A DNA stretch of 64,000 nucleotides from Syntrophaceae bacterium UBA7520 (GCA_002478265.1 DLNC01000026.1:6792-70791), one strand, 5' to 3'. Shown: positions 21,164-53,354, numbered from the stretch's first letter. Made by a program: numbers and translations. The notes: generated by a model from the letters alone, not told the origin.

Positions 21164-22027
21164 TCACTTAAGAATTTGATCGGAATCTTCCACCCGGAAA
21201 TCAACCAGCACCGGTTTATCTTCCAGCTTCATCCCCGCGGCCTGACCGAACATTTCCTCGCATTCCTTGGCCACTTTTTTGTGAAAAAGATACAGAGGAA
21301 TGCCCACCGGACAGGCGCGTGAACATTCGCCGCAATCAATGCAACGGCCAGCCAGATGATGAAATCTCGTCAGGTGATACATCATATTACCGGGTGACTG
21401 TGGAGCTTTGTCCGCCCAGCGGGGTTTGTTCTGATCGATAAAACACGGATCGCAATAGCACATCGGACAGGCCTTGCGACAGGCGTAACAGCGGATGCAC
21501 TTATCCAGCTGACCCTTCCAAAACGCCCAGCGCGCCTCTTTGTCCATTGCTTCATAATCGGCGAGCACTGCGTAGGGCGAAACAGTCTTCTGACCGCGGA
21601 TTTCTTCCCCCAGCAAAATATCATATTCTACGGGATTATAAAGACCGCCCGTTGTTCTGCTGTCTATTAACTGATCTGTTTTGGGATCTTTCATGCCGGA
21701 GGCCGGAATGCCCAGGATAACCAAATCCTCGCGACGAACTTTTTCCTCCTGAATAAGCACGACAAGCGCGCGGCTGTCCGCCGCTTTGGCCGCGATGGCA
21801 ATTTTAGCAGCGTCAGGAAAGCGCATGATGTACCTGGCCATGTTGAAATTACAGTATTCGTTAAAGACAATTTTTTCCACATCGGCAACAGATTTAGCAG
21901 CAAAAGGCATGGGGTGTTTTTCATCATAGCCGCGGGTGTAGGCCAAAACCACGGGCACTTCGGCCGATTCAAGCAATTTTTTTGCTTCCTTTTTCAGATT
22001 GTTTTCGATCTGCTTGAAATCGGTCAT
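21164..22027 (-). CDS. FlxC-like iron-sulfur subunit
   Basis: CIRCYACRKACPMCYC and CIDCGECSRACP clusters. Paralog of 29265..30272. 4-bp overlap with mvhD. Confidence 0.7.
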   Translation of the reverse strand: MTDFKQIENNLKKEAKKLLESAEVPVVLAYTRGYDEKHPMPFAAKSVADVEKIVFNEYCNFNMARYIMRFPDAAKIAIAAKAADSRALVVLIQEEKVRREDLVILGIPASGMKDPKTDQLIDSRTTGGLYNPVEYDILLGEEIRGQKTVSPYAVLADYEAMDKEARWAFWKGQLDKCIRCYACRKACPMCYCDPCFIDQNKPRWADKAPQSPGNMMYHLTRFHHLAGRCIDCGECSRACPVGIPLYLFHKKVAKECEEMFGQAAGMKLEDKPVLVDFRVEDSDQILK

Positions 22028-22455
22028 ATCTTCTCCAGAAGCTCGTCTATTTTCAGCTTTTGCTGCGGACCAAGCTCTTTTATCTGTGCGGTGAATTCGG
22101 TAACCACTTGTGCGAACTTATTGCCTTCCGAGGCGGAAATCCACTCCACGCGGAAGCGCTCCGGTTCCAGGCCGGCAAACTCCAGTATTTTTTTTGTTAC
22201 GGCCAATCTTCTTCTGGCGTAAAGATTTCCCGTGTTGTAGTGACAGTCGCCTGGATGACACCCGCCGACCAACACACCGTCCGCCCCCAGCTGGAAAGCG
22301 CGGAAAATAAATGAAGGATTGATACGGCTGGAACACATTACGCGAACCACCCGGAGGTTCTGCGGGTAATGCAGCCGGGTTGTCCCGGCCAGGTCAGCGC
22401 CGGTGTATGTGCACCAGTTACAGGCGATGCCCAGTATTTTCGGCTCAAACGACAT
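22024..22455 (-). CDS. mvhD: MvhD/FlxD-like subunit (Cys form)
   Basis: CNWCTYTGADLAG, GADGVLVGGCHPGDCHY, WISASEG. Confidence 0.85.
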   Translation of the reverse strand: MSFEPKILGIACNWCTYTGADLAGTTRLHYPQNLRVVRVMCSSRINPSFIFRAFQLGADGVLVGGCHPGDCHYNTGNLYARRRLAVTKKILEFAGLEPERFRVEWISASEGNKFAQVVTEFTAQIKELGPQQKLKIDELLEKI

Positions 22456-22562: not shown

Positions 22563-22574
22563 AAGAACATAATT

Positions 22575-24524: not shown

Positions 24525-24569
24525 CGCATTTCTCCGCTATTTAAAAATAAATGGCACATAGAAATATCT

Positions 24570-25751
24570 TTAATCAGTCGCACAGACATCTCCCACAGAT
24601 TCATCGATATTAATTTCCATGCTCTCCAGCAGCAATTCCGTGACGTCTCTGACGGTGATTTTATCATCCACATTGAGCGTACGGACGCTGTCTTCGAACA
24701 TCGTGATGCAATAGGGACAGGCGGTCGCCAAAACCGTCGCGCCGGTGGCCAGCGCTTCTTCAATGCGCAAATCGCTCAGCCGCTCGCCCTTTAACTTTTC
24801 CATCCACAGTCCGCCGCCGCCGCCGCCGCAGCACATGCTCTGCTCGCGGCTGCGCTCCATCTCCATCAATTTCAGACCGGGAATAGCTTTGAGTACATTG
24901 CGTGGCGCATCATAAACACCGCTGTGACGACCCAGATAGCAGGGATCGTGGTAGGTTACCACAATGCCGCCGAAATCCTTTTTCGGTTTTATTTTTCCTT
25001 CTTTTATTTTTTTATCAAGTAATTGCGTGAAATGCACGACTGAATAATCTTCACCGTACTCTTTATTAAATGTGGCCAGGCAATGTGGAGATACTGTAAT
25101 CATTTTAGCCACATTCCGCGATTGAAAATAATCCAGGTTCTTTTGTTTGAGGCGCGCAAATAAATCAAGGTCGCCGACTTTTCTGACGCTTTCCCCGCAG
25201 CAGTTTACCTCCGCAGCGGGAAGCCCCCAACTGATGCCGGTTTCATTCAATAAAGCGGCTGTCGTTTTCGCGATGCGGACATTACGCGGATCATAGCAAA
25301 CGGTGCAGCATGTCCAAAAAAGATATTCCATCTCCGGAGCATAGAGAGGATATTTCTGTCCGGCCCAGTCGTTTCTTTTTGCCTGGTCGCCCGACCAAGG
25401 ATTGCCGCGCGCCGCCAGAGATCCGACAAAAGCGCGCAAACTCTGCGGCAGCATGCCGCCGCCGCTGTAGACATTGCGAATGGCTGTCACGATATCGATA
25501 ATTTCCACGCCGCGGGGACAGCGATCCACACAGAATTTACACGTGGAACAACCCCACATAAACTCCTCAATGCCGTCAAAGCCCAGCTGACCGTAACGCA
25601 CCAGCTTGCGGATATTAAAGTGCGTTATCGGCGTCCACGGGCAGGTGCCGGAACAGGTGCCGCACTGATAGCATTTCTTCAGCGCCTCGCCGCCTGCCTC
25701 CATAATCGCCTGCGACATTTCCAGGTATGGCGTTATTGCCTGTGACATCAA
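24570..25751 (-). CDS. HdrD-like fused HdrC/HdrB protein (2x[4Fe-4S] + two CCG domains)
   Basis: CYQCGTCSGTCPW and CSTCKFCVDRCP, followed by the CCG motifs VNCCGES and SMCCGGGGG. Confidence 0.8.
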   Translation of the reverse strand: MMSQAITPYLEMSQAIMEAGGEALKKCYQCGTCSGTCPWTPITHFNIRKLVRYGQLGFDGIEEFMWGCSTCKFCVDRCPRGVEIIDIVTAIRNVYSGGGMLPQSLRAFVGSLAARGNPWSGDQAKRNDWAGQKYPLYAPEMEYLFWTCCTVCYDPRNVRIAKTTAALLNETGISWGLPAAEVNCCGESVRKVGDLDLFARLKQKNLDYFQSRNVAKMITVSPHCLATFNKEYGEDYSVVHFTQLLDKKIKEGKIKPKKDFGGIVVTYHDPCYLGRHSGVYDAPRNVLKAIPGLKLMEMERSREQSMCCGGGGGGLWMEKLKGERLSDLRIEEALATGATVLATACPYCITMFEDSVRTLNVDDKITVRDVTELLLESMEINIDESVGDVCATD

Positions 25752-25906
25752 ACATCTCCTCGAATAGTGAACGGATTCACGCTCTTGCTACCACATAAAA
25801 AATCAAACCGCAAATTCAAACTTGACAAAAAGCCGGCGGCGGATACTTTTCTCCGCCCGAAAACACGATCCCGGAAAATTTATCAATATTTGAGAATGTG
25901 AGGAAA

Positions 25907-26746
25907 CTAGTATTCGGGTGTCAGCTTGTCGAGCTCCGCCAGGGAAAATACCGGCCCGTCTTTGCAGACGTATTTGCTGCCCACATTGCAGCGTCCGCAT
26001 TTGCCGATGCCGCATTTCATGCGCATTTCCAGCGAGGTAATAATATTTTCCTTGGAAAAACCCAATTCAAAAAATACCGGCAAAGTGAAGCGGATCATCA
26101 CGGGGGGCCCGCAGATAACTGCCACCGCGTTTTCCTTGCTGGGAGCGACTTCCTTGCAGACGGCGGGCACAAACCCTTCTCTGCCCTTCCAGCTGGCATC
26201 ACCTTTGTCCACCGTCACGTTAAGGTTCAAATCAGTCCGTTTTCCCCATTCGGCCAGCTCGTCTTTGTAAAGTAAAAGCCCCGGAGTTCTGGCGCCGTAG
26301 ATTACAGTAATATTTCCGAAACGCTTCCGGTTGTCTTCATGCAGCATGTAATTTATCAGCGAGCGCAGGGTGGTGAAGGCAAAACCGCCGCCGACCACGA
26401 CAATGTTTTTCCCCGCAAGATAATCCAGCGGCCAGGAATTCCCTAATGGGCCGCGAATGCCCATGAGCGTTCCTTCTTCCATTTCATGCAGCGCCGTGGT
26501 TACCACTCCTGCTTTCTGCACGGTGAATTCCACATAACCTTTTTGCGTGGGTGATGAAGCAATGCCGATCGGGCACTCACCCTTCCCGAAAATGGAAAGC
26601 TCTCCGAATTGACCTGGAATGTAAGCGTATTTCTGTTCATCTTCCGGATTAACAAATTTCAAGCGGAAAGTTTTGATGTCCTTGGTATCGACTTCGGTAA
26701 TAATTTTATCCACGACAACAGGATAAGGAATATACGGGTTTTGCAT
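25907..26746 (-). CDS. FlxA-like NAD(P)H:flavin oxidoreductase subunit, second copy
   Basis: Colinear with 19221..20093 and judged by eye to be more than 60% identical. C-terminal CGIGKCGRCNVG. Confidence 0.75.
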   Translation of the reverse strand: MQNPYIPYPVVVDKIITEVDTKDIKTFRLKFVNPEDEQKYAYIPGQFGELSIFGKGECPIGIASSPTQKGYVEFTVQKAGVVTTALHEMEEGTLMGIRGPLGNSWPLDYLAGKNIVVVGGGFAFTTLRSLINYMLHEDNRKRFGNITVIYGARTPGLLLYKDELAEWGKRTDLNLNVTVDKGDASWKGREGFVPAVCKEVAPSKENAVAVICGPPVMIRFTLPVFFELGFSKENIITSLEMRMKCGIGKCGRCNVGSKYVCKDGPVFSLAELDKLTPEY

Positions 26747-26760
26747 TACTTACTCCCTGA

Positions 26761-27783
26761 TTATAATTTAGAAATATCTTGAACAATTTTTCTGATATCA
26801 ATATTCACCGGACAGTACATCACACAGCGGCCGCAGCCCACGCAGGAAATCGCGTTGAACATATCCACATAATATTTGAATTTGTGCATGGTGCGCTGGC
26901 GCCATCTTTCTTTTTGTGAAGGCCGCGGATTGTGCCCGGATGTCTCTTTGGTAAACAGAGGAAACATGCACGAATCCCAGGACCGGATGCGCACGCCGTC
27001 CGAACCTTTAACCTCGTCGCTGATGTCAAAACAATGGCAGGTCGGGCACAAATAGGTGCAGGTGCCACAGGCCAGGCATTTGCCATGAATCGTGTTCCAG
27101 AAAGGATTGTCGAAATTTACATCCAGAATCGGTTTAACTTCATGCGCGGGTATTTTTGATTTAACTGCCTCTTTCGCTTTGGCGGCAATTTCCGCTTTCT
27201 TGGATTCCGCCTGCGCGTCGGCCTTTGTTTCACCGAAATATTTTGCCAGCGCCTCGCCCTTCGGGGTAACAAATTCCACCAGATAATCACCGCCGATGTC
27301 GGTAAGCAGAATGTCCGCTCCGTCGGAGGAAACCGGCTCACCGTCCACCGATGTGCAAAAACAGCTCGTGTACGGCGGTGTCGCGCAAGCAAGCGAAATA
27401 ACCGTTGTGTTTTTTCTTTTCGCTATATAGTAGCCGTCTTTGTATTTTTCCTGATCAAAAAGCTTGTCCAGAAGTACAAAGCTGTGCGCGTCGCAGGGGC
27501 GCACGCCAAACAAAACAGACTGCTCGGCTTTATTTACTTCCGCAGAAAAGGTCATGCCTTTTTCCGTGCGGGTATACTTCATCATGGTTTCCGTATGGGG
27601 AAAGAAAACATTTTTCGGCGCGTTTTTGGAGTTCAGATAAGAAAAAAACGGCTCATCGTTCCTGCCGAGCGGCGCAAAGAGAACATTATCTTCCTTCTTA
27701 ACCGGCGCCCAAACCAGAAAATCATCCGCCATTTTTTTGGCTATCCCGGCCAAGGCATCTTTTTTGATCAAACGTTTTTCCAT
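26761..27783 (-). CDS. FlxB-like iron-sulfur subunit, second copy
   Basis: FGVRPCDA, CLACGTCTYLCPTCHCFD, CVGCGRCVMYCP. The ATG at 27783 has an AGGAAAG SD; the ORF-track TTG start at 27825 is less likely. Confidence 0.7.
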   Translation of the reverse strand: MEKRLIKKDALAGIAKKMADDFLVWAPVKKEDNVLFAPLGRNDEPFFSYLNSKNAPKNVFFPHTETMMKYTRTEKGMTFSAEVNKAEQSVLFGVRPCDAHSFVLLDKLFDQEKYKDGYYIAKRKNTTVISLACATPPYTSCFCTSVDGEPVSSDGADILLTDIGGDYLVEFVTPKGEALAKYFGETKADAQAESKKAEIAAKAKEAVKSKIPAHEVKPILDVNFDNPFWNTIHGKCLACGTCTYLCPTCHCFDISDEVKGSDGVRIRSWDSCMFPLFTKETSGHNPRPSQKERWRQRTMHKFKYYVDMFNAISCVGCGRCVMYCPVNIDIRKIVQDISKL

Positions 27784-27841
27784 AATCTTTCCTAATTTAT
27801 TATTTTCTGCACCTTGCGAAATCAAAATACTTTTATTTTTT

Positions 27842-28690
27842 TCAAATCAGCCTCAACTGCTTTAAAAGCGGCTGCGGGTCGAAAATATGCGATTTAAAAG
27901 TATCCTTTGCTTCCGGCAAATCCATCGCCAGCGAAATCAGTTCGGTAAAATAGAATACCGGCAATCTCAGCTTCCGGCTGGGACGCATATCCAGATTAGC
28001 CATGCACAGCGGGCAGGCGGTTACCACGCAGTTGGCACCCGCTTCCCGCGCCGCGCTCATCAACTTATCACACATGTCGACGACAATTTTCGTTTTGCTG
28101 ATCGCGAGCGATCCGCCGCAGCAGTCGGTTTTATACGACCAGTTTTTCACGTCCGCGCCGATGGCCGTTAATATTTTGTCCATCATATAAGGATTTTCAT
28201 AGTCGTCGAACTCACAGACCTCCGGGGGGCGCAGCAAAAGACATCCGTAATAAGATACCGGTTTTAGGCCACCCAAGTCTTTTTTGGTTTTTCCCTTAAG
28301 CGCTTCTATGCCGATATCGTTATAGATAATATCAACGGGATTGCGGATCGCAAAGTTTGGCTGGTATTTGCCGCCGATAACATCTTCTATCTTTGTCTTC
28401 AGTTTATCATCCGCCTTTAAATGATGCTCGGCCATTTTAAACCTGTTGAAACAGGCCGCGCAGGGAACCATGACATCCAGCGCGTCTTTCTGGGCGGCGA
28501 TCAAGTTGCGCGCCGGCAGCGCGATCGATAAATCAAAATTGGTGCTGTGCGCGGAAGAAGCCCCGCAGCAGGACCAGTCGTCAACTTCTTTTATTTCTAT
28601 GCCCAAAGCGCGGCTGACCGCCTTCATCGACTGATCATATTCTTTTCCCGTCGCGTGCAGCGAACATCCGGGGTAGTATGAAACTTTCAA
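27842..28690 (-). CDS. hdrB: Heterodisulfide reductase subunit B (two CCG domains)
   Basis: MKVSYYPGCSL, WSCCGAS, YYGCLLLRP, DCCGGS. Confidence 0.85.
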   Translation of the reverse strand: MKVSYYPGCSLHATGKEYDQSMKAVSRALGIEIKEVDDWSCCGASSAHSTNFDLSIALPARNLIAAQKDALDVMVPCAACFNRFKMAEHHLKADDKLKTKIEDVIGGKYQPNFAIRNPVDIIYNDIGIEALKGKTKKDLGGLKPVSYYGCLLLRPPEVCEFDDYENPYMMDKILTAIGADVKNWSYKTDCCGGSLAISKTKIVVDMCDKLMSAAREAGANCVVTACPLCMANLDMRPSRKLRLPVFYFTELISLAMDLPEAKDTFKSHIFDPQPLLKQLRLI

Positions 28691-28711
28691 CTCCTGCCTC
28701 CTTAGCCTTCT

Positions 28712-29239
28712 TTACGATGACTTTGTTTTTTCAAAAATATCCTGGACGGACTTCAAATCCTTCGTGCGCGGCGAAACAAGCGCGAGTTTTCCTTTTAGGA
28801 ACATGCCCGGAGCCAGGGTGATATCCGAAAACAAATCTCCCGATTTTAACTTATACTGCACCATCATCATCGGCTCGTTGATACGGCCGCCCATTTTAAT
28901 GCCGGACAAAAACGCTTCGTGGAACTTCAGCACATTTCTCTCGCGCGCGCCGATGCCGGATTCGATAGCCATCTGCCTGAGCACATCCATCATGCGGGCG
29001 ATATCCACTTCGTTCGGACAGCGCGTGATGCATGTTTCACACGACAGGCAAAGCCAAATGGTGGAACTCCTGAGCACTTTATCGCGCTCGCCGTTCTGGA
29101 TCATTTTAACCACCCTGTTGGGGTTAAATTCCATATACGACGCCGTGGGACACCCCGCCGTGCACTTGCGGCAATGATAGCAGCGTTGAATGGGCACTCC
29201 GTTTATTCTCTCGTTTACTTCTTCCAGAAAAGTTTGCAT
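28712..29239 (-). CDS. hdrC: Heterodisulfide reductase subunit C
   Basis: CYHCRKCTAGCP and CLSCETCITRCP. The ORF-track start at 29347 would overlap the upstream gene by 83 nt; the ATG at 29239 (MQTFLEE) fits better. Confidence 0.8.
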   Translation of the reverse strand: MQTFLEEVNERINGVPIQRCYHCRKCTAGCPTASYMEFNPNRVVKMIQNGERDKVLRSSTIWLCLSCETCITRCPNEVDIARMMDVLRQMAIESGIGARERNVLKFHEAFLSGIKMGGRINEPMMMVQYKLKSGDLFSDITLAPGMFLKGKLALVSPRTKDLKSVQDIFEKTKSS

Positions 29240-29264
29240 GTGAACTCCGCTTTTTAAATCCTCG

Positions 29265-30272
29265 TCAGGGATTGTAAATAAAATCTTCTTTGTCGTTTTC
29301 ACTGAATTTGCCCAAAGGCGGCATGTCTTCCATGGAAGATCCGGCACGGTTGCCGAACATCTCCCAGCAGTCCTTGTCTATTTTTTTGAGGAAATTGCGC
29401 AAATCAACGCCCATCGGGCAGACGGCCACACAGGAGCCGCAATCCACGCAACGCCCCACCATGTGATAGAGGCGCATGAACTGGAATACCTGCGTGTCAG
29501 TCGCGTCTTCGCCGATACCAACCCACTGCGGCATGCTTTGCTCGGCAAAACAGGTCGGGCAATAACAGGACGGACAAGCCTGGCGACAGGCATTGCAGCG
29601 AATACACTTGGCCATTTCCTTTGTGAAGTACGCCCAACGCTCTTCAATGGACTTGGCTTCAAATTCCTTAACCTGGTCATACTCGGCTTCGGGATTCATG
29701 GCTGGCGCAGGCGAACCGACCATAACGTCGGAAATAATGGGATTATTATACCGGCAAGTGCGGCAGCTGTCTGAAAGGACTTCTTTCAGCGCGACGGTCT
29801 TTTCACCTTCCGCCGTTTTCACCTTAATCTGGCCGCCTTCCATATCGCCTTCAATGATATCCGCGCCGCCTGCGGCGGTTCTTAATTTTTTACTCTCCAC
29901 ATAGCCGTCGCAGGGAACGCCGATAATGTAAACTTCGCCGCGGTCATATTGCCTTTCCTGCAAATGGATAATAATGGAACGCGTGGTGCAGCCGCGGGCG
30001 ACCACCCCGATCACTTTTTTCTTCCTGTCTTCCGGCTTAACGCGCTTTTGCGAATTTTTATGCGCGGTAATCAAGTCATGCACGAACTTGGCCAAGTTTT
30101 GCGTGCAGAGATTGTTCCAGATTAGTTTTTCCGCCTCTTCCGGCCTAGTGATAAAGCAAGGCGTTGCCGTCAAAGGAAGCGTGCCTTTTTCATAGCCAAT
30201 GATCACGTCAGCTTTCTTTTCCAAAAGCAGCCTTTGAGCTTCTTCCCGCAATTTAGTTTCAATGTTTTCCAC
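29265..30272 (-). CDS. FlxC-like iron-sulfur subunit, second copy
   Basis: CIRCNACRQACPSCYC and CVDCGSCVAVCP. N-terminal half paralogous to 21164..22027. Confidence 0.7.
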   Translation of the reverse strand: MENIETKLREEAQRLLLEKKADVIIGYEKGTLPLTATPCFITRPEEAEKLIWNNLCTQNLAKFVHDLITAHKNSQKRVKPEDRKKKVIGVVARGCTTRSIIIHLQERQYDRGEVYIIGVPCDGYVESKKLRTAAGGADIIEGDMEGGQIKVKTAEGEKTVALKEVLSDSCRTCRYNNPIISDVMVGSPAPAMNPEAEYDQVKEFEAKSIEERWAYFTKEMAKCIRCNACRQACPSCYCPTCFAEQSMPQWVGIGEDATDTQVFQFMRLYHMVGRCVDCGSCVAVCPMGVDLRNFLKKIDKDCWEMFGNRAGSSMEDMPPLGKFSENDKEDFIYNP

Positions 30273-30318
30273 AGTGATAATTTCCTTGTTAGTTTTTATA
30301 CTCTTCTTATAAATTAAC

Positions 30319-30759
30319 CTATGCCACTGTCTTAACCATTTTACTGGCCGGTCCCAATGCCTTTATTTTTTCCGTCGCTCCTTTGATGACCTGCGCCCAT
30401 CTATCTCCTTCGGACGCGGAAACCCAGGTGAATATGGTACGGTCCCCTTCCACACCGATGTAATTCAGGAAACTTTTTAACGTCGCAAACTTGCGCCGCG
30501 CCACCATATTTCCCGAAATATAGTGGCATTCACCGGGGTGTCACCCCGAAACAAGAACGCCGTCGGCTCCGGACTGCAGGGCTTTCACTATATAAAAAGG
30601 ATTTATTCTGCCGGTGCAGGGAACACGGATGATTCTCACGTTGGTCGGATATTGAATCCTGCTGATACCGGCCAGATCGGCGCCCGCGTAGGTACACCAG
30701 TTGCAGACGATGGCAACGAATTTCGGTTCCCATTCCTTATTTGCTAAGTTTTCAGCCAT
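30319..30759 (-). CDS. mvhD: MvhD/FlxD-like subunit, selenocysteine form (in-frame TGA at 30541..30543 read as Sec; 146 aa)
   Basis: ORF-track fragments 30541..30759 and 30319..30507 share a frame. The joined product reads ...[17 protein letters not shown]...WVSASEG and aligns end to end with the Cys paralog 22024..22455, with the TGA on the first Cys of GCHPGDCHY. Confidence 0.8.
30501..30526 (-). promoter_or_regulatory. Candidate bacterial SECIS hairpin
   Basis: mRNA 5'-CCACUAUAUUU-CGGG-AAAUAUGGUGG-3': an 11-bp stem (one G-U pair) and a 4-nt G-rich loop, starting 14 nt 3' of the UGA. Confidence 0.55.
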
Positions 30760-30815
30760 ATCTTCTCCTTAATATTTTCCTTCCCGCGGCAAGGCGGCTT
30801 TATCAGCCGGTCACC

Positions 30816-33800
30816 TCAGTTTAAATTATATATCTGTGCCACAACCTCTTCGTTATTGAAACCGTTGAGATCAACCGCGTTCATGCGGCAGGAGGCGGTG
30901 CAAACGCCGCACCCCTTACACAAAACAGTGTTAACAACCGCGCATCCCTCATTAACGTCCACGGCAATAGCGCTGTAGGGACAATTGATCTCGCAAAGGC
31001 CACAGGCCGAACATCTTTCTTTGTTGACATAGGCGGTCTTGCCTTCCGCTTCGATGTAGTCCAGCGTGAGTATCGTGCAGGCGCGGGACACGGCCGCGTT
31101 GGCCTGGGTGACCGTCTCATCGCTGAATTTCGGCGAATGCGACATGCCGCACATAAACACGCCGTCCGTGGCAAAATCCACCGGCCGCAATTTGACGTGC
31201 GCCTCCAGGAAAAAGCCGTCCTGGTTGGTGGGAACTTTCAACATCTGACCGATGGCCGCGTTTTCCGGATTCGGGACAACGCCCACACTGAGCGCTACGA
31301 TATCCGCGGGCAGAGTTACCTGCTCATTAAGAATCGGGTCAAAAACTTTTACTTCCAGCTTATCGCCCGCGGCGACAACCTGCGGCTTTCTTTCTTCTTC
31401 ATAAACGATGAATTTGATATTCGCTTCCCGCGCCTTCTTGTAATAATCTTCCTTGAAGGAGAAAGTGCGGATATCGCGGTAAATTATGGTGATATCGCGT
31501 GAGGGATCCGCGGCTTTTAACTCCAGCGCGTTTTTAATGGCCTCCGAGCAGCAGTAACGGCTGCAGTAAGGCCTTTCCTTCTCGCGGCTGCCCACGCACT
31601 GAATCATCACCACATTTTTCACCGCTGCCAGTTGCGGATCTTTTTCGTAAAGCAGCTTTTCCAGTTCCCGCTGTGTTTTTACTTTGTCGTTCTGGCCATA
31701 GAGATATTCCTTCGGCCTGTTTTCGTAAGCTCCCGTGGCCACCAGCACCACGCCATGCTCAAAAACTTTTTCTCCGTCCTTGGCTATGACGGTCGTTTTG
31801 TAATTGCCGATGAATCCTTCAATCTTTTTGATCTGAGCCGACGTGACAACGGTAATCAAGGGATTATTGTAAACTTTTTCCAGAAGTCCCTTGAGGTGGG
31901 CTTTTGTATCCAGTCCTTCCAGCGTTTTATATAAATGATTGTAGTTGCCGCCGAGGCGCTCCTCTTTCTCTATAATGAAGGAGGCAAATCCCTGATCGGC
32001 CAAGGAAAGCGCCACGGTAATGCCCGCCAAACCGCCACCGATAACCAGCGCCTGATGGTTAACGGCCAGCTGACCGGGCTTCAAAGGTTTTAGATACTGG
32101 GCCTTGGCCACCGCCATGCGCAACAAATCTTTGGCTTTTGCCGTTGCCTTTTCCGGTTCGTGCATATGCACCCACGAATCCTGGTCGCGGATATTGGCCA
32201 TTTCAAACAGATACCTGTTGAGACCGGCTTTCTCGCAGTTTTCCTGGAACAGCCCTTCATGTGTGCGCGGCGAGCACGAAGCAACTACTACGCGCGTCAA
32301 ATTTTCTTCTTTGATCACTTCCGCCATTTTTACCGCGGTGTCCTGCGAACAGGTAAACAAATTGTCGGCCGCGTAAACAACGGTGGGAAGCGTTTTAGCG
32401 TAATCGCGCACGGCGGGCACATCAACCACTCCTCCGATGTTGATGCCGCAGTGACAGACGAACACGCCGGTGCGCACCGGCTGGCCGCGCAGATCTTTTT
32501 CTTCCGGGTTTTCGACCGGCGTAATCATCGTGCCGCGCCGTGAGGCAAGCAGGCCTTCCGCGCAGGCGGCGGCGGCGGAAGCTTCCATAACCGTTTCCGG
32601 AATATCTTTAGGTCCTCCGAATGCGCCACAAACAAACACGCCGGGGCGTGATGTCTGCACGGGATTTTCCAGAGACGTTTTGCAGAAACCATGTTCTTCC
32701 AGTTCAATGCCTAAGCTGGCGGCCAGCTTTTTCGCCTCTTTCGGCGGCATCAGACCGACAGAAAGAACGACCATATCGAATTCCTCTTCGGTAAACGTGC
32801 CGTCCTGATTCACGTATTTGATCAGTAGATTGTTCGTCTGCTGCAATTCCTTAATCGTCGAAGGCATGGAACGGATATAACGGATACCGTATTCTTCCTT
32901 GGCGCGATTGACAAAACGGTCAAAGTCCTTGCCGTGGGCGCGGATATCCATGTAGAAGATGGTCGGCTCCAGCCCTTTGGCGTGCTCCTTGCCGATAATC
33001 GCCTCTTTCGTGGCATACATACAGCAAACAGACGAACACCAGCTGTTGTCGCAGGAAACATCGCGCGAGCCGACGCACTGAATGAAAGCGATTTTTTTCG
33101 GCTCCTTGCCATCCGAAATTCTCTGCACGTGGCCGAAATAAGGACCGGACGCGGAAAGAATCCTTTCGAACTGAATAGCTGAAATGACATTCTTGTAAAT
33201 GCCGTAACCGTATTCACCGCGCAGGCGCGCGTCGAAAATTTCAAAGCCGGGTGACGCGATCACCGCGCCTACTTCTATTGTTTCTTCCTGAACCGTCATG
33301 TCGTGATCAATGGCTTTAGCGATACACGCCTCCACGCACTGATAACATTCCGAACAAATGCCGCAATTAAGACAGCGCAGCGCCTCGGCAATCGCCTGCG
33401 CTTCGTCAAAACCGACGCCTACTTCGCGGAAATTGGTTACGCGGTCTTGCGGCTTCAGATGCGGATATTTCACGCGCGGGCTTTTCGGCACGTTCGACAC
33501 ATCGGCTTTATCCGCCAGATCTTTCGTCCAGTCTTTTTCCCTACCGGCCTTGATATCCATACCCTGCAGATAAAGATCGATGGATTTGGCTGCTTCCTTG
33601 CCTGAATAAACTGCTTTGACCACCGTCTGCGGGCCGGTGACCACGTCGCCGCCGGCGAAAATGCCGGGAACGTTAGTGGCAAAGGTCACCGGGTCGTAAT
33701 TGATATTGCTCCATTCGCTGACAGAAACGCCACTTTCTTTGGGCAGGAAGGATAAGTCCGCCTCCTGACCGATGGCGGGAATAATGGAGTCGCACTCAAT

Positions 33801-35243
33801 GATGAATTCCGAGCCCTTGATTTCGACGGGACGGCGGCGGCCGCTTTTATCGGGCTCGCCCAATTCCATGCGCACGCATTCCAGGGCCGCCGCCTTGCCA
33901 TCCTTGCCGATGACCCTTTTAGGCGCGACCAGAAATTCCATTTTGATTCCTTCTTCCAGCGCTTCTTCTATTTCTTCATTCGCGGCGGGCATTTCCGCGC
34001 GGGTGCGTCGATAAAGAATAAAGACGTCTTTGGAACCGGTGCGGACCGCGGTGCGGACAGCGTCCATCGCCACGTTACCGCCGCCGATCACCGCCACTTT
34101 ATCTCCGAGCGGGACTTGCTTGCCGAGATTGATTTGCGTGAGATAATCAACGCCCTGAATAACGCCGCGCATATCCTGCCCGGGAATATTCATACGGCTG
34201 CTTTTCATCGTGCCGCAGCCGATAAAAATCGCATCGTAATCTTTTTTCAGTTTTTCGAAGGGAATATCCTTGCCGATGCGGGTATTAAGATGAATCTTTA
34301 CACCCAAATCTTCGATTACCTTTATTTCCGCCCGCAGGACATCTTTGGGCAAACGATATTCCGGAATGCCGACGGCCATCCAGCCGCCCGCCATGGGCAG
34401 GGCTTCAAACACTTCCACATCATAGCCTTCAATAGCCAGGTAATAAGCGCAGGTCAACCCGGAAGGACCGGAGCCGATTATCGCCACCTTCTTGCCCTTG
34501 TTCTCTTTCTTTTCCGGCAGGTAACGCGTGTCGCTGTTTAAATCCAGATCCGCCACAAAGCGTTTCAGGTGCATGATATCAATGGGTTCATCCACCTTGC
34601 CGCGCATACAGGCGGTTTCACACGGATGGTTACAAACGCGCCCGCAGACAATGGGGAACGGGTTATCCTTTTTGATAAGTTTGAGAGCTTCCTTGAATTT
34701 TCCCTGACCGATCAGCGCCACATAGCCCTGCACGCTGATGTGCGTGGGACAATTTGCCTTGCACGGCGACGTGCCGAGTTTATCAATGGCAAAGCCGCTG
34801 GGAATCGCCTGTGGAAAATGACGGTAGATGGCCTGTCTTTCACTGAGGTTGCCGTTAAATTCGGCTTTAACGTTAACGGGGCAAACTTTGGCACAATCAC
34901 CGCAGCCCGTGCACTTGTCCAGATTCACGTAGCGGGGAGCGCTAGTCAGTTTAATCTTGAATTTACCCGGTTCGCCTTCCACCGCCTCAACGGTGCGCCG
35001 CGTCATGATTGTCACGTTGGGATGGCGCCCTACCTCCACGAGCTTCGGCGACAAAATGCACGCGGAGCAGTCATTGGTGGGAAATGTCTTATCCAGCTGA
35101 GCCATTACCCCGCCGATACTAATACCGTTTTCGACGAGATATACTTTCATTCCTGAGTTGGCTAAATCGAGCGACGCCTGAATGCCGGCTATACCCGAAC
35201 CAACGACCATTACTGCGCCAACTTTCTCATCATTTTTCAGCAC
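30816..35243 (-). CDS. Giant HdrA-like fusion: HdrA unit interrupted by a GltD-like NAD(P)H/FAD module, followed by a second complete HdrA unit ('HdrL'-type)
   Basis: 1475 aa, GTG start with AAGGAG SD. HdrA unit 1: GSGIAGIQASLDLA, DKTFPTNDCSACIL. GltD-like module: NPFPIVCGRVCNHPCETAC, VAIIGSGPSGLTCAYYL, VAVIGGGNVAMDAV. HdrA unit 2: VFVCHCGINIGG, VIGGGLAGITVALSLA, QCVGSRE..CSRYCC. Terminal CSACGLCEINCP / CKGCGVCTASC. Confidence 0.85.
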   Translation of the reverse strand: MLKNDEKVGAVMVVGSGIAGIQASLDLANSGMKVYLVENGISIGGVMAQLDKTFPTNDCSACILSPKLVEVGRHPNVTIMTRRTVEAVEGEPGKFKIKLTSAPRYVNLDKCTGCGDCAKVCPVNVKAEFNGNLSERQAIYRHFPQAIPSGFAIDKLGTSPCKANCPTHISVQGYVALIGQGKFKEALKLIKKDNPFPIVCGRVCNHPCETACMRGKVDEPIDIMHLKRFVADLDLNSDTRYLPEKKENKGKKVAIIGSGPSGLTCAYYLAIEGYDVEVFEALPMAGGWMAVGIPEYRLPKDVLRAEIKVIEDLGVKIHLNTRIGKDIPFEKLKKDYDAIFIGCGTMKSSRMNIPGQDMRGVIQGVDYLTQINLGKQVPLGDKVAVIGGGNVAMDAVRTAVRTGSKDVFILYRRTRAEMPAANEEIEEALEEGIKMEFLVAPKRVIGKDGKAAALECVRMELGEPDKSGRRRPVEIKGSEFIIECDSIIPAIGQEADLSFLPKESGVSVSEWSNINYDPVTFATNVPGIFAGGDVVTGPQTVVKAVYSGKEAAKSIDLYLQGMDIKAGREKDWTKDLADKADVSNVPKSPRVKYPHLKPQDRVTNFREVGVGFDEAQAIAEALRCLNCGICSECYQCVEACIAKAIDHDMTVQEETIEVGAVIASPGFEIFDARLRGEYGYGIYKNVISAIQFERILSASGPYFGHVQRISDGKEPKKIAFIQCVGSRDVSCDNSWCSSVCCMYATKEAIIGKEHAKGLEPTIFYMDIRAHGKDFDRFVNRAKEEYGIRYIRSMPSTIKELQQTNNLLIKYVNQDGTFTEEEFDMVVLSVGLMPPKEAKKLAASLGIELEEHGFCKTSLENPVQTSRPGVFVCGAFGGPKDIPETVMEASAAAACAEGLLASRRGTMITPVENPEEKDLRGQPVRTGVFVCHCGINIGGVVDVPAVRDYAKTLPTVVYAADNLFTCSQDTAVKMAEVIKEENLTRVVVASCSPRTHEGLFQENCEKAGLNRYLFEMANIRDQDSWVHMHEPEKATAKAKDLLRMAVAKAQYLKPLKPGQLAVNHQALVIGGGLAGITVALSLADQGFASFIIEKEERLGGNYNHLYKTLEGLDTKAHLKGLLEKVYNNPLITVVTSAQIKKIEGFIGNYKTTVIAKDGEKVFEHGVVLVATGAYENRPKEYLYGQNDKVKTQRELEKLLYEKDPQLAAVKNVVMIQCVGSREKERPYCSRYCCSEAIKNALELKAADPSRDITIIYRDIRTFSFKEDYYKKAREANIKFIVYEEERKPQVVAAGDKLEVKVFDPILNEQVTLPADIVALSVGVVPNPENAAIGQMLKVPTNQDGFFLEAHVKLRPVDFATDGVFMCGMSHSPKFSDETVTQANAAVSRACTILTLDYIEAEGKTAYVNKERCSACGLCEINCPYSAIAVDVNEGCAVVNTVLCKGCGVCTASCRMNAVDLNGFNNEEVVAQIYNLN

Positions 35244-35480
35244 TTGTTACTCCTTAAAATACTGTCTGTGGAATAATATTTTTGATTTTTTTGAATCGAG
35301 GGAAAAAAGAAAAATAGTGCGGCGAACATAACTAAATTAACCTGTAATAAAACCAACATTATCATAATCATCATAAGCCTCATCCGTATAGGAAATTTTT
35401 GACTAATGGTCAAGAAAATTTTTTCTGACTGATGATATCGCGAAGAAAAGTACCCGCAAAAAAGAATAACTACCACAAAA

Positions 35481-36089
35481 TCAAGAGGATACAACATCAC
35501 CCGACGGGCAAAGCATATTTTTCAGAACACGCCATAATTGTTCTTTACCCGTTGCGGTTTTGGCGGAAAAAACAACCATTTTGTCTTCTTCGGAAACGCG
35601 CAATTTTTTTTCAATTAACTTTCTTTGCCGGAAAATTTCGTTGTTCGAAAGTTTGTCGCTCTTAGTCAGCACATATAGGCAAGGTATGCGGTAGTGCTCC
35701 AGCCAGTCGCAGAGGGACAAGTCATCATCATTTGGTACACGCCTTATATCAAGAATGAGAATAACCAACGCCAGATTCTGCCTTCCACGCAGATAAGACT
35801 CAATCATTTCTCCCCAGTTTTTTCTCACCGCGCGCGATACTTTGGCAAATCCATAACCGGGCAAATCCACAAAAAATATTTTATCGTTGACGGAAAAAAA
35901 ATTAATTAGTTGCGTGCGTCCCGGCGTGTTGCTGGTTTTGGCCAGATTTTTCCTGCCGACGAGCGCGTTGATCAGGGAAGATTTTCCCACGTTGGAACGC
36001 CCGACAAAAGCAACTTCCGGCAAATCCGGCGGCGGATAGTGAGATGGCTGCGTCGCGCTTTTGATGAATTCGGCTTTGGTAATCTTCAT
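35481..36089 (-). CDS. engB: Ribosome-biogenesis GTPase YsxC/EngB
   Basis: G1 GRSNVGKSSLINAL, G3 DLPGYG, G4 TKSDK. The ATG at 36089 is preferred over the ORF-track TTG at 36137, which overlaps the upstream gene. Confidence 0.85.
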   Translation of the reverse strand: MKITKAEFIKSATQPSHYPPPDLPEVAFVGRSNVGKSSLINALVGRKNLAKTSNTPGRTQLINFFSVNDKIFFVDLPGYGFAKVSRAVRKNWGEMIESYLRGRQNLALVILILDIRRVPNDDDLSLCDWLEHYRIPCLYVLTKSDKLSNNEIFRQRKLIEKKLRVSEEDKMVVFSAKTATGKEQLWRVLKNMLCPSGDVVSS

Positions 36090-36123
36090 GACGTGAAATA
36101 ATTTTTCAGGTAAGCAGTATCGC

Positions 36124-37518
36124 CTATTCACGTTCAAAGACGATGCCGTATTTTTCCAGTTTTCGTTCCAATGTCGGGCGAGAAACGCCCAATATCTCGC
36201 AGATTTCGCCTTTGTTCTTTTTGTCGTTTTCTTTGAGGATTTTTCTGATGTAGCGCTCTTCGACTTCGTCGAGCGTCAGCAGCTTGCCCGATGCCGCCGG
36301 CGTGAATACCTCCGCCAGATCGTCTTTGCGTTCCCTGCCCGGTTCTTCCTTGCCCAGTTCGGGGAAATCATTTTTTCCCAAAACCTGGCCCTGCGCGACC
36401 ACACAGGCGCGCACAAGCAGATTTTCCAGCTCGCGGATATTGCCCGGCCAGTGGTACTGCATAAACATCTCCATAACCTCATCGGAAACACCGATAATCT
36501 TTTTATGCAGATCCAGATTTATCTTGGCCAGAAGATAATCAATCAGTGGAGCGATATCCTGACGCCGCTCTCTGAGGGGTGGAATGGTGATGGACACAAT
36601 GTTCAACCGGTAATAAAGATCGTCGCGGAACTTTCCTTCCTTGACCAGCGCCTTAAGATCTTTGTTGGTCGCGGCCATAATGCGGGCGTTGACTTTAACC
36701 TTGTCCTTGCCGCCCACCCTGTCGAATTCCATTTCCTGCAGAACGCGCAGCAGTTTCGCCTGCAGATTAACCGACATCTCGCTTATTTCGTCCAGAAAAA
36801 CTGAGCCGTAGCGCGCCAGTTCAAACTTGCCCAGTTTTCTTGTCACGGCGCCGGTAAAAGAGCCTTTTTCGTGGCCGAACAATTCAGACTCCAGAAGCGT
36901 TTCCACAATCGCCGAACAATTGACGGCGATAAAAGGTTCATCCGGCGAAGTGTTGTTGTGAATGACTTTGGCAATTAATTCTTTTCCCGTGCCGCTCTCA
37001 CCCTGAATCAAAACTGTCGTGCGGCTTTGCGAAACAATGCCGACCGTCTTGAAAATTTCACGCATTTGATTGCCGGTGCCGATAATGTCGCCCACCCGAA
37101 AATTGCGCGACGGCTCCATTAAAAGACCGTCAATCTTCTTTTCCATCTCCACCGATTTCAGGGCTTTTTTTATGGCGATATCCAGTTCGTCCACATTCAC
37201 CGGCTTGTGAATGTAATCAAAGGCGCCGCCTTTCATGGCGTTGATGGTTGTTTCCATGTCGTGAAAGGCAGTAATCATGATGACTTTGACGTTTTCGTTT
37301 TCTTCCTTGAGGTCCTCCAGCACGGAAAACCCGTCAACATCCGGCAGTCTGATATCCAGAATAACGACATCAGCGGGGTTTTTGACATATTTGTTGAGGC
37401 CATCCGTGCCTGTTTCCGCTGTCTCGACTTTATAGCCTTCTTCCGTCAGGTACAGATCCAGCGTTTCGCGAATCGAAGCGTCATCATCGATAACCAGAAT
37501 TTTGGACATGTCCTCCAC
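36124..37518 (-). CDS. Sigma54-dependent response regulator (NtrC family: REC + AAA+ + Fis-type HTH)
   Basis: REC (ILVIDDD, VILDIRLP). AAA+ Walker A GESGTGKE, GSFTGA sigma54-contact loop. C-terminal HTH ICEILGVSRPTLERKLEKYGI. Confidence 0.9.
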   Translation of the reverse strand: MEDMSKILVIDDDASIRETLDLYLTEEGYKVETAETGTDGLNKYVKNPADVVILDIRLPDVDGFSVLEDLKEENENVKVIMITAFHDMETTINAMKGGAFDYIHKPVNVDELDIAIKKALKSVEMEKKIDGLLMEPSRNFRVGDIIGTGNQMREIFKTVGIVSQSRTTVLIQGESGTGKELIAKVIHNNTSPDEPFIAVNCSAIVETLLESELFGHEKGSFTGAVTRKLGKFELARYGSVFLDEISEMSVNLQAKLLRVLQEMEFDRVGGKDKVKVNARIMAATNKDLKALVKEGKFRDDLYYRLNIVSITIPPLRERRQDIAPLIDYLLAKINLDLHKKIIGVSDEVMEMFMQYHWPGNIRELENLLVRACVVAQGQVLGKNDFPELGKEEPGRERKDDLAEVFTPAASGKLLTLDEVEERYIRKILKENDKKNKGEICEILGVSRPTLERKLEKYGIVFERE

Positions 37519-37519
37519 C

Positions 37520-50661: not shown

Positions 50662-52077
50662 TTAACCGGAAACAATATTTTTGAGACCCTCGGCAATAAA
50701 AACAAATTCATCTTCAGAGACGGTGCGCGGGTCAAGCAGGACTTCGTCTTTATCCACGCGCACGATTACCGGCATCTCAAGCGCGCGCAGTTTTTCTTCG
50801 ATGCGCCCGGCGGACATCTTTTTGCTTTTGATGCCGATTAAAACCGTGGGAATTTTCTGCGTGGGGAGCGAGCCGCCGCCGGCGGTGGAAAAGCCATCGC
50901 GCAGGCTCAATTCCAGCCCAGCATAATTTTCTTTCTGTAATTTGTTAAACAGTTTGCGCGCGCGTATTTTGACATCGGCAACAGGTTCGGTCAAGGCTTT
51001 CAGCGGGCGCAGTTTTTTGACCGCCTGCGCGGCATCAAGATAATGCATCAGCGTCGCCTCCAGCGCGGCCAGCGTGAATTTATCTATCCTTAACGCGCGA
51101 TTGAGAGGATTCTTTTTGATTTTGGCGAGTATTTTTTTCCCGCCGACGATGATGCCCGCCTGCGGCCCGCCCAGAAGCTTATCGCCGCTGAAGGTCACCA
51201 CGTCAACACCGGCTTTCAAGACTTCCCGTACTGTGGGTTCGTGCTCCAATCCATAATTTTCTAGATTGATCAGACAGCCGCTGCCCAGATCGTTCATCAC
51301 CGGTATGCGCTTCTTTTTGCCTAACGTCACCAGTTCTTCAATTTCCGCCTCTTCAGTAAAACCGATAATGCGGTAATTGCTGGTATGCACCTTCATAATC
51401 AGGCCGGTTTCTTTGTTTATCGCTTTTTCATAATCTTTCAGGCGCGTGCGGTTGGTTGTGCCCACTTCCCGCAGGCGCGTGGCGCTTTTGCTCATCACTT
51501 CCGGTATGCGAAATTCGCCGCCGATTTCAATAAGCTCGCCGCGCGAAACGATCGCTTCTTTGCCTTCCGCCAAAGTGTTGATGACCAAAAGCACCGCTGC
51601 GGCGTTGTTATTGACAATCAACGCGTCTTCCGCGCCGGTTAAGGCACAAAGTAGGCGGCTGGCATGGTCATAACGCTGTCCGCGCTCGCCCCTTGTTAAA
51701 TCAAATTCCAGATTGGAATAACCACGTCCCACTTCATTAATTCTTTGCAGCGCCTCCGGGCACAAAGGCGCGCGTCCTAAATTAGTGTGCAGAATAACGC
51801 CTGTTGCATTGACCACCCGGCGCAGGTTATATGTGTGCAAATTTTTTATGTTTTGGTAAATTTTCCCGGCGACATCTTTGGCTTCCAGCACTATTGCATC
51901 ACGTGCGTCTTTTCTGCCGCCGGTGATTTTCTCCCGCAAGGCCTGCACGGTTTTGCGGCAGATTTCTTTGACCAGCGCGCGCGGCGCCAGCGCGTAAACA
52001 TCCTGCTTTTCCAGGAGAAGCAGCAATTCGTCGATTTTCGGCAGCTCTTTCAAAAGTCTCTTTGTTTTTTTATCCAT
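50662..52077 (-). CDS. selA: L-seryl-tRNA(Sec) selenium transferase (selenocysteine synthase)
   Basis: LKELPKIDELL N-terminus, NLEFDLTRGERGQR, and the PLP-Lys block VTFSGDKLLGGPQAGII. The ATG at 52077 (MDKKTK) avoids overlap with the upstream gene. Confidence 0.85.
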   Translation of the reverse strand: MDKKTKRLLKELPKIDELLLLLEKQDVYALAPRALVKEICRKTVQALREKITGGRKDARDAIVLEAKDVAGKIYQNIKNLHTYNLRRVVNATGVILHTNLGRAPLCPEALQRINEVGRGYSNLEFDLTRGERGQRYDHASRLLCALTGAEDALIVNNNAAAVLLVINTLAEGKEAIVSRGELIEIGGEFRIPEVMSKSATRLREVGTTNRTRLKDYEKAINKETGLIMKVHTSNYRIIGFTEEAEIEELVTLGKKKRIPVMNDLGSGCLINLENYGLEHEPTVREVLKAGVDVVTFSGDKLLGGPQAGIIVGGKKILAKIKKNPLNRALRIDKFTLAALEATLMHYLDAAQAVKKLRPLKALTEPVADVKIRARKLFNKLQKENYAGLELSLRDGFSTAGGGSLPTQKIPTVLIGIKSKKMSAGRIEEKLRALEMPVIVRVDKDEVLLDPRTVSEDEFVFIAEGLKNIVSG

Positions 52078-52091
52078 ACAAGACCTCTTTT

Positions 52092-53354
52092 TTATACGAT
52101 GCCCGCTTCTTTGCGGCAATAATCGCGGAAATTATTGACGGCGATAAAGAACTCTCTCATCATAATCACCCACAGATAGCGACCCCAAGGAGTTAAGGAT
52201 AAATAGGGCGAAAAATAACGGAAAGCCCGAACTGTTTGAAAAGCGCCTATTTCCTTCCAGAGCGTCTGCGCAAACTTACCTTGATACTTTTCCTCCAGCC
52301 GCGCGATGTCGAGTTTCGTGCTGAACAATTTCATCATGAAATCATAACGCATCCGGTCAGGCAAATCAAAGCTACGCGCGGCCATCAAAGGCAGCTCTTC
52401 CTCATCCAGCAGCTTAATATATTTTTCGATATCAAAGGTGTTGGCATAACAAACGCCGTTCATGTAGCCAATGGCGCCGCTGCCCAGCCCCGCGTATTCA
52501 TCATACTCAACGACGTATTCATCGATCGGCGCTTCCTTGCGCGAAAAACACCAGGCGGAAGAATATTTATATTCTTTTTCCAGGCGGCGCGCGATTAATT
52601 TATAGAGATTATATTCTTTTTTAAAATCAACTTCACCCATCGTTTTCGCCATAAGCTCCCTTGTAATCTGCGATACCATCAGCGGGTAAAAAGTAACCTG
52701 ATCAACTTTTAAATCAAGCAAGACATCCAGATCGGCATTGAGTTCCTGCGGCGTCTGCGCGGGAAGATTAAAAATCATATCAGCGTTTAGTGTGGCAAAC
52801 GCGCCCTGCGTTTCTTTCAGCTTTTGGACAATTTCTTCGCCAGAGCCGTATTTATCCCGACGCCCCATTTTTTCAAGCAGTTCGTCATTAAATGTCTGTA
52901 CGCCAACGGATAGCCGATTTACTTTGCACCTTTGCAATATTTTGATGTTTCTTGCGGTTAAATGATCCGGGTTTGTTTCCACGGATATTTCTCTTACATC
53001 AAAAATATCCCGCGCCAGCTGAAGAGTCTGGGCCAATTCATCAATCAGCACTGTCGGCGTGCCGCCACCTACATAAATACCGCTGAATTTATACCCTTTG
53101 CCGTGGTAAAGAGTGATTTCGCGGCGCAGGGCTGAAAAATATTTTTTGGCGCGTGGGGCGGAGAAAAGAACGCGGTGAAAGGAACAATAGGGACAAAGTT
53201 CCTCGCAAAAAGGTATGTGCAGATACAGCAGGCGGGCTTTATTATCTTCGCAGGGAAGAAGGTCAGGCGGCGCGCCCTCTTCAAAGCGCAGCGCGCGGGA
53301 AAATTCCTCTTTAGCTTTCTTGGTGACGATGCGGCTGATGATGGTTTTTATCAA
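52092..53354 (-). CDS. Radical SAM, coproporphyrinogen-III oxidase (HemN-like) family protein
   Basis: LYLHIPFCEELCPYCSF (CxxxCxxC) and GGGTPT. The start is uncertain. The ORF-track start at 53627 would overlap def on the other strand by 145 nt; the in-frame TTG at 53354 is the only start-like codon upstream of the motif. Confidence 0.7.
   Translation of the reverse strand: MIKTIISRIVTKKAKEEFSRALRFEEGAPPDLLPCEDNKARLLYLHIPFCEELCPYCSFHRVLFSAPRAKKYFSALRREITLYHGKGYKFSGIYVGGGTPTVLIDELAQTLQLARDIFDVREISVETNPDHLTARNIKILQRCKVNRLSVGVQTFNDELLEKMGRRDKYGSGEEIVQKLKETQGAFATLNADMIFNLPAQTPQELNADLDVLLDLKVDQVTFYPLMVSQITRELMAKTMGEVDFKKEYNLYKLIARRLEKEYKYSSAWCFSRKEAPIDEYVVEYDEYAGLGSGAIGYMNGVCYANTFDIEKYIKLLDEEELPLMAARSFDLPDRMRYDFMMKLFSTKLDIARLEEKYQGKFAQTLWKEIGAFQTVRAFRYFSPYLSLTPWGRYLWVIMMREFFIAVNNFRDYCRKEAGIV

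Follow-up and report, generated by a model that had tools for sequence, protein, structure and literature searches.

The locus at 30319-30759 of the window, by which we mean the whole 64,000-nt stretch of DNA analysed here, raises a simple question: does the TGA that interrupts it end a gene, break a gene, or encode an amino acid? Two open reading frames, 30541..30759 (72 aa) and 30319..30507 (62 aa), share a minus-strand frame in which the TGA and 11 sense codons separate them. The initial annotation, made from the sequence alone, had described exactly this layout and proposed the recoding of the UGA as selenocysteine (Sec) in an MvhD/FlxD-like subunit. We consider it very probable that 30319-30759 is one gene for a Sec-containing MvhD-type subunit, with the UGA decoded via a downstream mRNA structure and the product forming part of an Hdr-type complex. 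This core reading was supported in every test run, namely TGA conservation, Sec-specific RNA constraint, the presence of selA and the state of the downstream frame.

Inspection of the minus strand from 30759 to 30319 showed a single frame of 147 codons with one internal stop, the TGA at 30543-30541. The gene and its recoded codon are as follows.

30319..30759, minus strand: gene of the mvhD/flpD type with 146 codons, of which codon 73 is an in-frame UGA; stop codon TAG at 30319-30321
30541..30543, minus strand: UGA codon 73, predicted selenocysteine codon in the alignment column of the first Cys of G-C-H-P-G-x-C-H-Y

The 146-aa read-through product was compared with the Pfam FlpD/MvhD family (PF02662), and residues 15-136 matched profile positions 2-123 of 123 with an E value of 6.3e-51, in agreement with the identity first assigned to the protein. 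This end-to-end match was obtained only when the TGA was read through and the sequence taken as a whole of 146 aa. Among solved structures, the MvhD chains 7bkb_F and 5odc_D matched residues 8-139 with E values of 1e-47 to 1e-46, and the values over all solved MvhD chains matching the read-through protein ranged from 1e-47 to 1e-30. The five conserved Cys positions of the family (CxxC, C48 and GC-H-x-G-x-C-HY) are all present, position 73 as UGA; C19, C22, C48 and C78 are invariant, and position 73 is Cys in every full-length homologue and UGA here. The alignment with the Cys paralog at 22024..22455 is gapless around the motif, confirming that the TGA falls on the first Cys of G-C-HPG-x-C-HY, as had been stated. 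The N-terminal CNWC motif of the Sec-type MvhD keeps its Cys. A scan of the whole window for TGA-split genes returned mvhD at 30319-30759 as the only case, apart from adjacent genes that share a frame. One such pair, the HdrD-like ORF at 24570-25751 and the HdrA ORF at 22575-24524, was considered as a second Sec candidate and rejected, since the gap between them holds two stops, a TGA and a TAA, and they are therefore separate genes.

A sequencing or assembly error, or a recent nonsense mutation that left a pseudogene, would produce the same layout. The top 120 protein-database matches, from Smithella and Smithellaceae, are all full-length Cys forms, and one change from TGT or TGC to TGA would suffice. 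The Cys-only outcome is a database artefact: Sec forms are deposited as fragments of 72 aa, which lowers their score. At the DNA level, the TGA was present in 10/10 public loci compared, whose DNA is 87-100% identical to the window, and the mvhD gene of two of them, from a JGI metagenome (L004) and a Logan run (L005), is identical to that of the window. Most of the window is contained in a public run labelled as a hydrocarbon metagenome. The identical 72-aa fragment is on record in 48 index blocks of the ENA, JGI and Logan collections, with at least 23 contigs carrying the call. The initial annotation had asked whether the TGA might be an assembly error; contigs of four DNA runs (8-148x) showed no other letter at 30541-30543, and four anaerobic-digester metatranscriptome contig sets (word depth 75-254), whose strains diverge by as much as about 10%, spanned codon 73 without a listed change. 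Since these contigs span the UGA codon, mvhD is transcribed as one mRNA.

Conservation was then assessed by a DNA-level scan of species-representative genomes, in which 80 of 231 matching stretches were taken in, nearly all labelled Smithella, Smithellaceae or Syntrophaceae, which assigns the window to a Smithellaceae bacterium. Codon 73 is TGA in 58 of these 80 loci, TGT in 21 and TGC in one, so that the column holds Sec or Cys codons throughout, a point that the initial annotation had proposed to check. Past the UGA, codons 74-138 are free of stops in all 69 Sec-form genes, 65 of which end at codon 147; pN/pS amounts to 0.086 over codons 101-138, compared with 0.055 over codons 10-72. The UGA is genuine, conserved across species and transcribed, and the downstream half of the gene is under protein-level selection in the same frame. 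Set against a TGA found in 10/10 contigs, in 58/80 loci and in the contigs of eight DNA and RNA runs, and against 69 sequences free of downstream stops and frameshifts, the error or pseudogene explanation is refuted for practical purposes.

A genuine UGA could also be a true stop in a gene that is naturally split, giving the 72-aa product alone or together with a separately initiated C-terminal peptide. Gene callers predict just these pieces, and, in line with the initial annotation, public calls list a 72-aa and a 61/62-aa FlpD fragment; in the window an ATG (Met85) is available 11 codons past the stop. This ATG, which lets callers start the second ORF, is however strain-specific, the rest of the clade having Leu (CUG/UUG/UUA) at that position. 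Codons 74-85, including the invariant Cys78-His79-Tyr80 that sits between the TGA and any possible restart, precede every available start and yet are conserved at the protein level, and the suppression of synonymous change described below starts at codon 74 only where codon 73 is TGA. The stop-free downstream frame (69/69) with its pN/pS of 0.086 likewise counters the case, raised at the outset, of a conserved truncated product of about 72 aa. We thus regard a natural split as highly improbable and retain the reading of a single, read-through gene.

The strongest evidence for recoding, independent of any folding model, came from synonymous variation. Analysis of 64 distinct Sec genes returned a synonymous codon heterozygosity of 0.123 in codons 74-100 against 0.308 elsewhere, and when a 27-codon window was slid along the gene, the minimum among its 111 positions was the one with codon 74 as its first codon. 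The 22 Cys forms show no dip over codons 74-100, with values of 0.386 there and 0.351 elsewhere. Constraint at the RNA level is confined to Sec forms and sets in immediately past the UGA, marking a Sec-specific cis RNA element. The constrained RNA measures about 81 nt (codons 74-100) and contains the hairpin proposed earlier, while a bacterial SECIS in its minimal form would take up about half of this stretch. Three parts of the zone can be told apart.

30500..30527, minus strand: hairpin 1, SECIS-like, nt 17-44 counted from the U of the UGA, 12-bp stem with CGGG loop
30480..30499, minus strand: hairpin 2, nt 45-64, 7 bp with a G/A mismatch and AGUU loop, abutting hairpin 1
30460..30479, minus strand: nt 65-84, 3' portion of the synonymously constrained zone, outside both hairpins

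RNA folding, which had been suggested as a check, recovered hairpin 1. In the window it consists of 12 Watson-Crick or GU pairs plus a closing U-G (30528/30499), 13 in all, starting 13 nt after the UGA, and the 11-bp core with CGGG loop first described at 30501-30526 lies within this 12-13-bp stem. The hairpin thus exists, but it is not the whole element: the constrained RNA is longer, and the 12-13-bp form is strain-specific. The clade consensus of hairpin 1 has a 7-bp stem and a 14-nt top containing GG, and two substitutions of the window strain, AUC to AUU (synonymous) and CUG to AUG (Leu85>Met), turn it into a continuous hairpin of 12-13 bp. The lower 7-bp stem is invariant except for a change of U-G to U-A in five sequences and one break. 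The folding energy of hairpin 1 came to -10.4 +/- 1.4 kcal/mol for Sec forms, against -6.1 +/- 3.4 kcal/mol for Cys forms. Stability was evaluated against synonymous recodings drawn with the codon usage of the window, a null model adopted instead of dinucleotide shuffles; the window hairpin was more stable than 99.2% of the recodings of the same peptide (p about 0.008), and compared with plain dinucleotide shuffles it was not significant (z = -1.35). The clade-consensus hairpin 1 was not unusually stable for its peptide by the same recoding procedure (p about 0.10).

Within the zone, the variable synonymous sites are located in the hairpin-1 loop (nt 27 and 30), at the closing G-U/A-U pair (nt 45) and at the unpaired nt 48, the last two, a closing pair and a mismatch, being the sole variable ones in hairpin 2. 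Compensatory two-sided covariation was found for none of the helices of the SECIS zone, as the alignment is 96% identical; 99% of cells are paired and the changes are one-sided. The window as a whole gave no Rfam hit, and the element matched no SECIS family at either gathering or permissive thresholds; what turned up had E values of 7.9 and 9.8 and belonged to unrelated models, as expected by chance. Database entries ending at the same residue led to five contigs (L091-L095) with four distant genes of the Sec-mvhD type. They carry the TGA at the same codon, their read-through continues as HxGxCHY, and a predicted hairpin starts about 16-20 nt after the U of the UGA with GG in its loop. These distant genes independently support a SECIS-like element.

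The element resembles the E. coli fdhF SECIS and the bSECISearch model: in each case a stem-loop follows the UGA directly, is itself part of the coding region and has G residues in its loop. Its hairpin-1 apical loop begins 23-25 nt after the UGA, inside the range of 16-37 nt that the bSECISearch model reportedly allows. It differs from both in the lack of sequence similarity, in the second, abutting hairpin and in the further constrained 3' segment. Two smaller observations concern the same region. The UGA itself tops a small G/C hairpin at 30531-30549 (CGGGG-UGACA-CCCCG); since Cys forms can form a similar CCGG/CCGG stem, this structure is probably a by-product of the Gly and Pro codons and unrelated to Sec decoding. 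At 30453-30503, which overlaps the SECIS zone, and at 30657-30724, metagenome and metatranscriptome contigs show a two- to four-fold higher word depth and break; a probable cause is that strains occurring together, and paralogs, share the same nucleotides there.

The 3' segment of the zone deserves separate consideration. Codons 94-98 (nt 64-78) are as constrained as the hairpins, with a codon heterozygosity of 0-0.09 in Sec forms against 0.24-0.60 in Cys forms, and nt 72-79 (30465-30472) are perfectly complementary to nt 28-35 (30509-30516) in the apical part of hairpin 1. In the clade consensus, this 8-nt complementarity reads UCAGGAAA/UUUCCUGA. Calculations with RNAalifold, and with RNAfold in a 99-nt context, favoured the long-range helix over hairpin 1 by 2.7 kcal/mol for the clade consensus, while for the window strain hairpin 1 was favoured over the long-range helix by 3 kcal/mol. 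One-sided changes mostly leave the long-range helix paired (25 cells against 5). The folding models leave room for a speculative, on balance rather unlikely, arrangement in which the Sec-form RNA would act as a pseudoknot or a two-state switch, exposing or sequestering the SelB-binding loop and tuning Sec insertion or the fate of the mRNA to the selenium supply. If such a switch were true, the two substitutions of the window strain, by lengthening hairpin 1, would shift the balance towards the open SECIS. By eye, no complement of the loop was seen downstream in two of the distant Sec-mvhD genes (L092 and L093), so the pseudoknot idea is not general.

The decoding machinery was then considered, and one of its genes is found in the window itself.

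50662..52119, minus strand: selA (selenocysteine synthase), PF03841 with E 3.5e-155 over profile positions 1-366 of 367, plus the SelA N-terminal domain

The selA ORF is intact, and its Pfam match confirms the assignment made at the outset. Of the 47 genes in the window, 20 use TGA as their stop, as in the standard genetic code. Syntrophus aciditrophicus, a cultured relative, has 19 reported selenoproteins, 4 of them of the FrhD/MvhD type (PMC1794560). A read-through that bypasses the Sec pathway, by near-cognate insertion of Trp or Cys or by a suppressor tRNA, would leave the same frame intact. Such a mechanism could be argued from the window, which holds no tRNA genes and thus no selC, and among whose scanned ORFs neither selB nor selD was seen, from the fact that selenium in the protein is itself deduced, and from the orthologs in which Cys works at position 73. 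Against it stand the presence of selA in the same window, the position of the codon in the Cys/Sec column of a classic selenoprotein family, the structured RNA element that is specific to Sec forms and lies at the distance expected for a bacterial SECIS, and the use of TGA as the normal stop of 20 other window genes. We therefore judge read-through by such a route very unlikely; the residue inserted at the UGA would be Sec rather than another amino acid, and hairpin 1 the putative SelB-binding element.

The position of the gene is consistent with this assignment. As is usual in the MvhD/FlpD/FrhD family, mvhD stands directly after a gene of the hdrA/hdrL type; the HdrL-like gene ends 57 nt upstream, and this order is kept in relatives. 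Pfam searches of the surroundings gave the following features.

30816..35243, minus strand: HdrL-like fusion of 1475 aa, with an HdrA-like FAD/Fe-S part and a GltD/NfnB-like NAD(P)H part
29265-30272, minus strand: FrhB-like Fe-S protein
28712-29347, minus strand: HdrC-like protein
27842-28690, minus strand: HdrB-like CCG protein
26761-27825, minus strand: FlxB-like protein
25907-26746, minus strand: FlxA-like FAD/NAD protein
19221-25751, minus strand: second, differently built module with HdrD-like, HdrA, Cys-MvhD and FlxC/B/A-like genes
22024..22455, minus strand: Cys-type MvhD paralog of 143 aa, 53% identical to the read-through protein, in the HdrD-HdrA-MvhD-FlxCBA-like module

The HdrL-like gene, mvhD and the FrhB-, HdrC-, HdrB-, FlxB- and FlxA-like genes form a seven-gene minus-strand module, whose part at 25907..30272 recurs in the same order, with 71-100% identity, in nearly all loci of the orthologous cluster. 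Two different Hdr-type modules are arranged head to tail over 19221-35243. In most relatives whose flank reaches that far, the first module's FlxA-like gene is likewise succeeded by the HdrD-like gene that opens the second, and the tandem of modules is thus conserved in Smithellaceae. Upstream of the HdrL cluster and on the same strand, 35481-40087 carries genes for a small GTPase, a sigma-54-dependent response regulator and a Cache/PAS histidine kinase, which are candidate regulators of the HdrL module. An 87-aa ORF at 35237-35500, with no Pfam match, overlaps the hdrL start.

From these data the following mechanism can be proposed. MvhD would be a small [2Fe-2S] adaptor wiring the HdrA/HdrL flavoprotein to its partner module, and the UGA at codon 73 would stand in for one of the five conserved cysteines that surround the site of the cluster. 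When the ribosome reaches the UGA, the mRNA structure starting 13 nt downstream, that is hairpin 1, probably stacked on hairpin 2, would recruit SelB with Sec-tRNA(Sec); selenocysteine would be inserted and translation would run on to the TAG at 30319-30321. The full-length MvhD is predicted to work with the upstream HdrL-like protein and the downstream FrhB-like, HdrC, HdrB and FlxBA-like proteins, in what would be an NAD(P)H-linked Hdr-type complex, electron-bifurcating or confurcating, of a Smithellaceae syntroph; this enzymology is proposed from gene content.

Residue 73 may be a ligand of the [2Fe-2S] cluster or a close neighbour of it. The class II benzoyl-CoA reductase of Geobacter metallireducens offers a comparison: its adaptor BamF is homologous to MvhD, carries one Sec and a [2Fe-2S] cluster (bioRxiv 10.64898/2026.04.10.717634), and connects an HdrA-type bifurcating subunit with an input module, as proposed for the present protein. 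BamF exceeds the latter by more than 100 aa, its partner module is NuoEFG-like and not Flx-like, and its Sec is residue 19, a cysteine position next to the cluster which we take to sit in the N-terminal motif, whereas Sec here is residue 73, in GUHPGxCHY. Given the five conserved cysteines of the family and the non-ligand cysteine at residue 19 of BamF, we can do no more than infer ligation by residue 73.

The coexistence of Sec and Cys forms was examined through the 22 Cys forms among the 80 loci, which comprise 6 orthologs inside the HdrL cluster and 16 stand-alone mvhD genes, and through three further orthologs among the top database matches.

L070, L074, L075, L082, L088, L090: Cys orthologs inside the HdrL cluster
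L062, L067, L069, L071-L073, L076-L080, L083-L085, L087, L089: stand-alone Cys mvhD, at about 6001-6438 in most
L096:808-1248, L097:274-714, L098:61-501: Cys orthologs with TGT, top database matches

The initial annotation had pointed to Cys and Sec isoforms of one subunit in adjacent modules. A Cys paralog (22024..22455) does lie in the neighbouring module, but it is only 53% identical and belongs to a differently built module; judged by sequence, the two do not look like an isoform pair and the remark appears overstated. The near-isoform would instead be the stand-alone Cys mvhD found elsewhere in many related genomes, whose proteins are 85-90% identical to the Sec protein of the window and lie outside any hdr cluster. 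The Sec copy is also present in at least 12 of the 16 assemblies with a stand-alone Cys copy, an undercount because 80 of the 231 matching stretches were taken in. This copy may serve as a single-subunit backup under selenium limitation. Its neighbourhoods vary and are only partly conserved, with an ABC transporter, a chromate transporter and a porin in one locus (L078) and a molybdopterin oxidoreductase and Fic in another (L083).

Orthologous loci with Cys number nine, namely the six inside the HdrL cluster and L096-L098, which shows that Sec is dispensable for the protein. The latter three share 93% protein and about 84-85% DNA identity with the read-through gene of the window, and in the 90 nt from codon 73 they differ from the Sec consensus by 3, 8 and 12 nt, L098 being the one with 3. 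Such sequences are best read as fossil SECIS elements at different stages of decay after Sec-to-Cys conversion. A rough neighbour-joining tree (300 nt, without support values) places the Cys orthologs within Sec lineages, a topology which would fit repeated Sec-to-Cys conversion, as reported for the family (PMC1794560). The locus thus offers a natural series from Sec with an intact SECIS, through recent Cys with a fossil SECIS, to older Cys with a decayed element.

The initial annotation had also stated that the family is not new, and the literature agrees. The FrhD/MvhD/VhuD selenoprotein family counted 19 bacterial members by 2006 (PMC1794560), and Desulfobacterium autotrophicum HRM2 has four Sec-type mvhD genes (MvhD1/2/3/5) beside hdrA/hdrL (PMC2702500). 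The D. autotrophicum MvhD and S. aciditrophicus FrhD proteins belong to the same PF02662 family as the present one and share with it the upstream hdrA/hdrL, Sec in place of a conserved Cys and the coexistence of Cys homologues (PMC2702500, PMC1794560). The differences lie in the Smithellaceae ortholog, in its HdrL-MvhD-FrhB-like-HdrCB-FlxBA-like cluster and in the RNA constraint of about 81 nt. In an exhaustive search with the 72-aa sequence, the best 150 family representatives included 33 whose last residue aligns precisely with position 72, and all 16 of the ends inspected among those 33 read ...GxDG/AxxxxG, so the residue-73 site appears to be widely used as a Sec site. A literature search found no report of a Sec-type mvhD of Smithella.

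In Methanococcus, VhuD (Sec) and VhcD (Cys) are encoded in one genome and the Cys form is used under selenium limitation (PMC6019823; PMC13518236). VhuD and VhcD are homologous [2Fe-2S] adaptors between an electron-input module and HdrA, the role predicted for the MvhD described here. The archaeal SECIS however lies in the 3' untranslated region and relies on different machinery, and Methanococcus duplicates the whole vhc operon, whereas Smithellaceae duplicate only a stand-alone Cys mvhD. A 2026 review gives the archaeal/family Sec motif as CxxU, an N-terminal site, with two Sec residues (PMC13188914); here, by contrast, the N-terminal CNWC stays Cys. The family and its apparently common Sec site are long known, and the locus is a correct but ordinary instance of a known recoding that leaves knowledge of the MvhD family unchanged; only the stand-alone Cys copy and the length of the constrained RNA go further than textbook knowledge.

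The main value of the locus lies in the annotation of Smithellaceae genomes and in the natural series of Sec/Cys exchange. In every public assembly examined that carries the gene, mvhD is mis-annotated as two fragments, with the result that the Smithella-type electron-transfer module is scored incomplete; the selenium dependence of Smithella-type syntrophs, key alkane and fatty-acid degraders in digesters and oil reservoirs, is underestimated.

Finally, two features at the other end of the window were recorded. An aldehyde:ferredoxin oxidoreductase-family (tungsten/molybdopterin) gene of 739 aa lies at 14645-16864, about 2.4 kb from the Flx/Hdr modules, and 1130-7695 encodes two proteins of the response-regulator / multi-PAS / HD-GYP type (HD_5), one of which is 1495 aa long with seven PAS domains.
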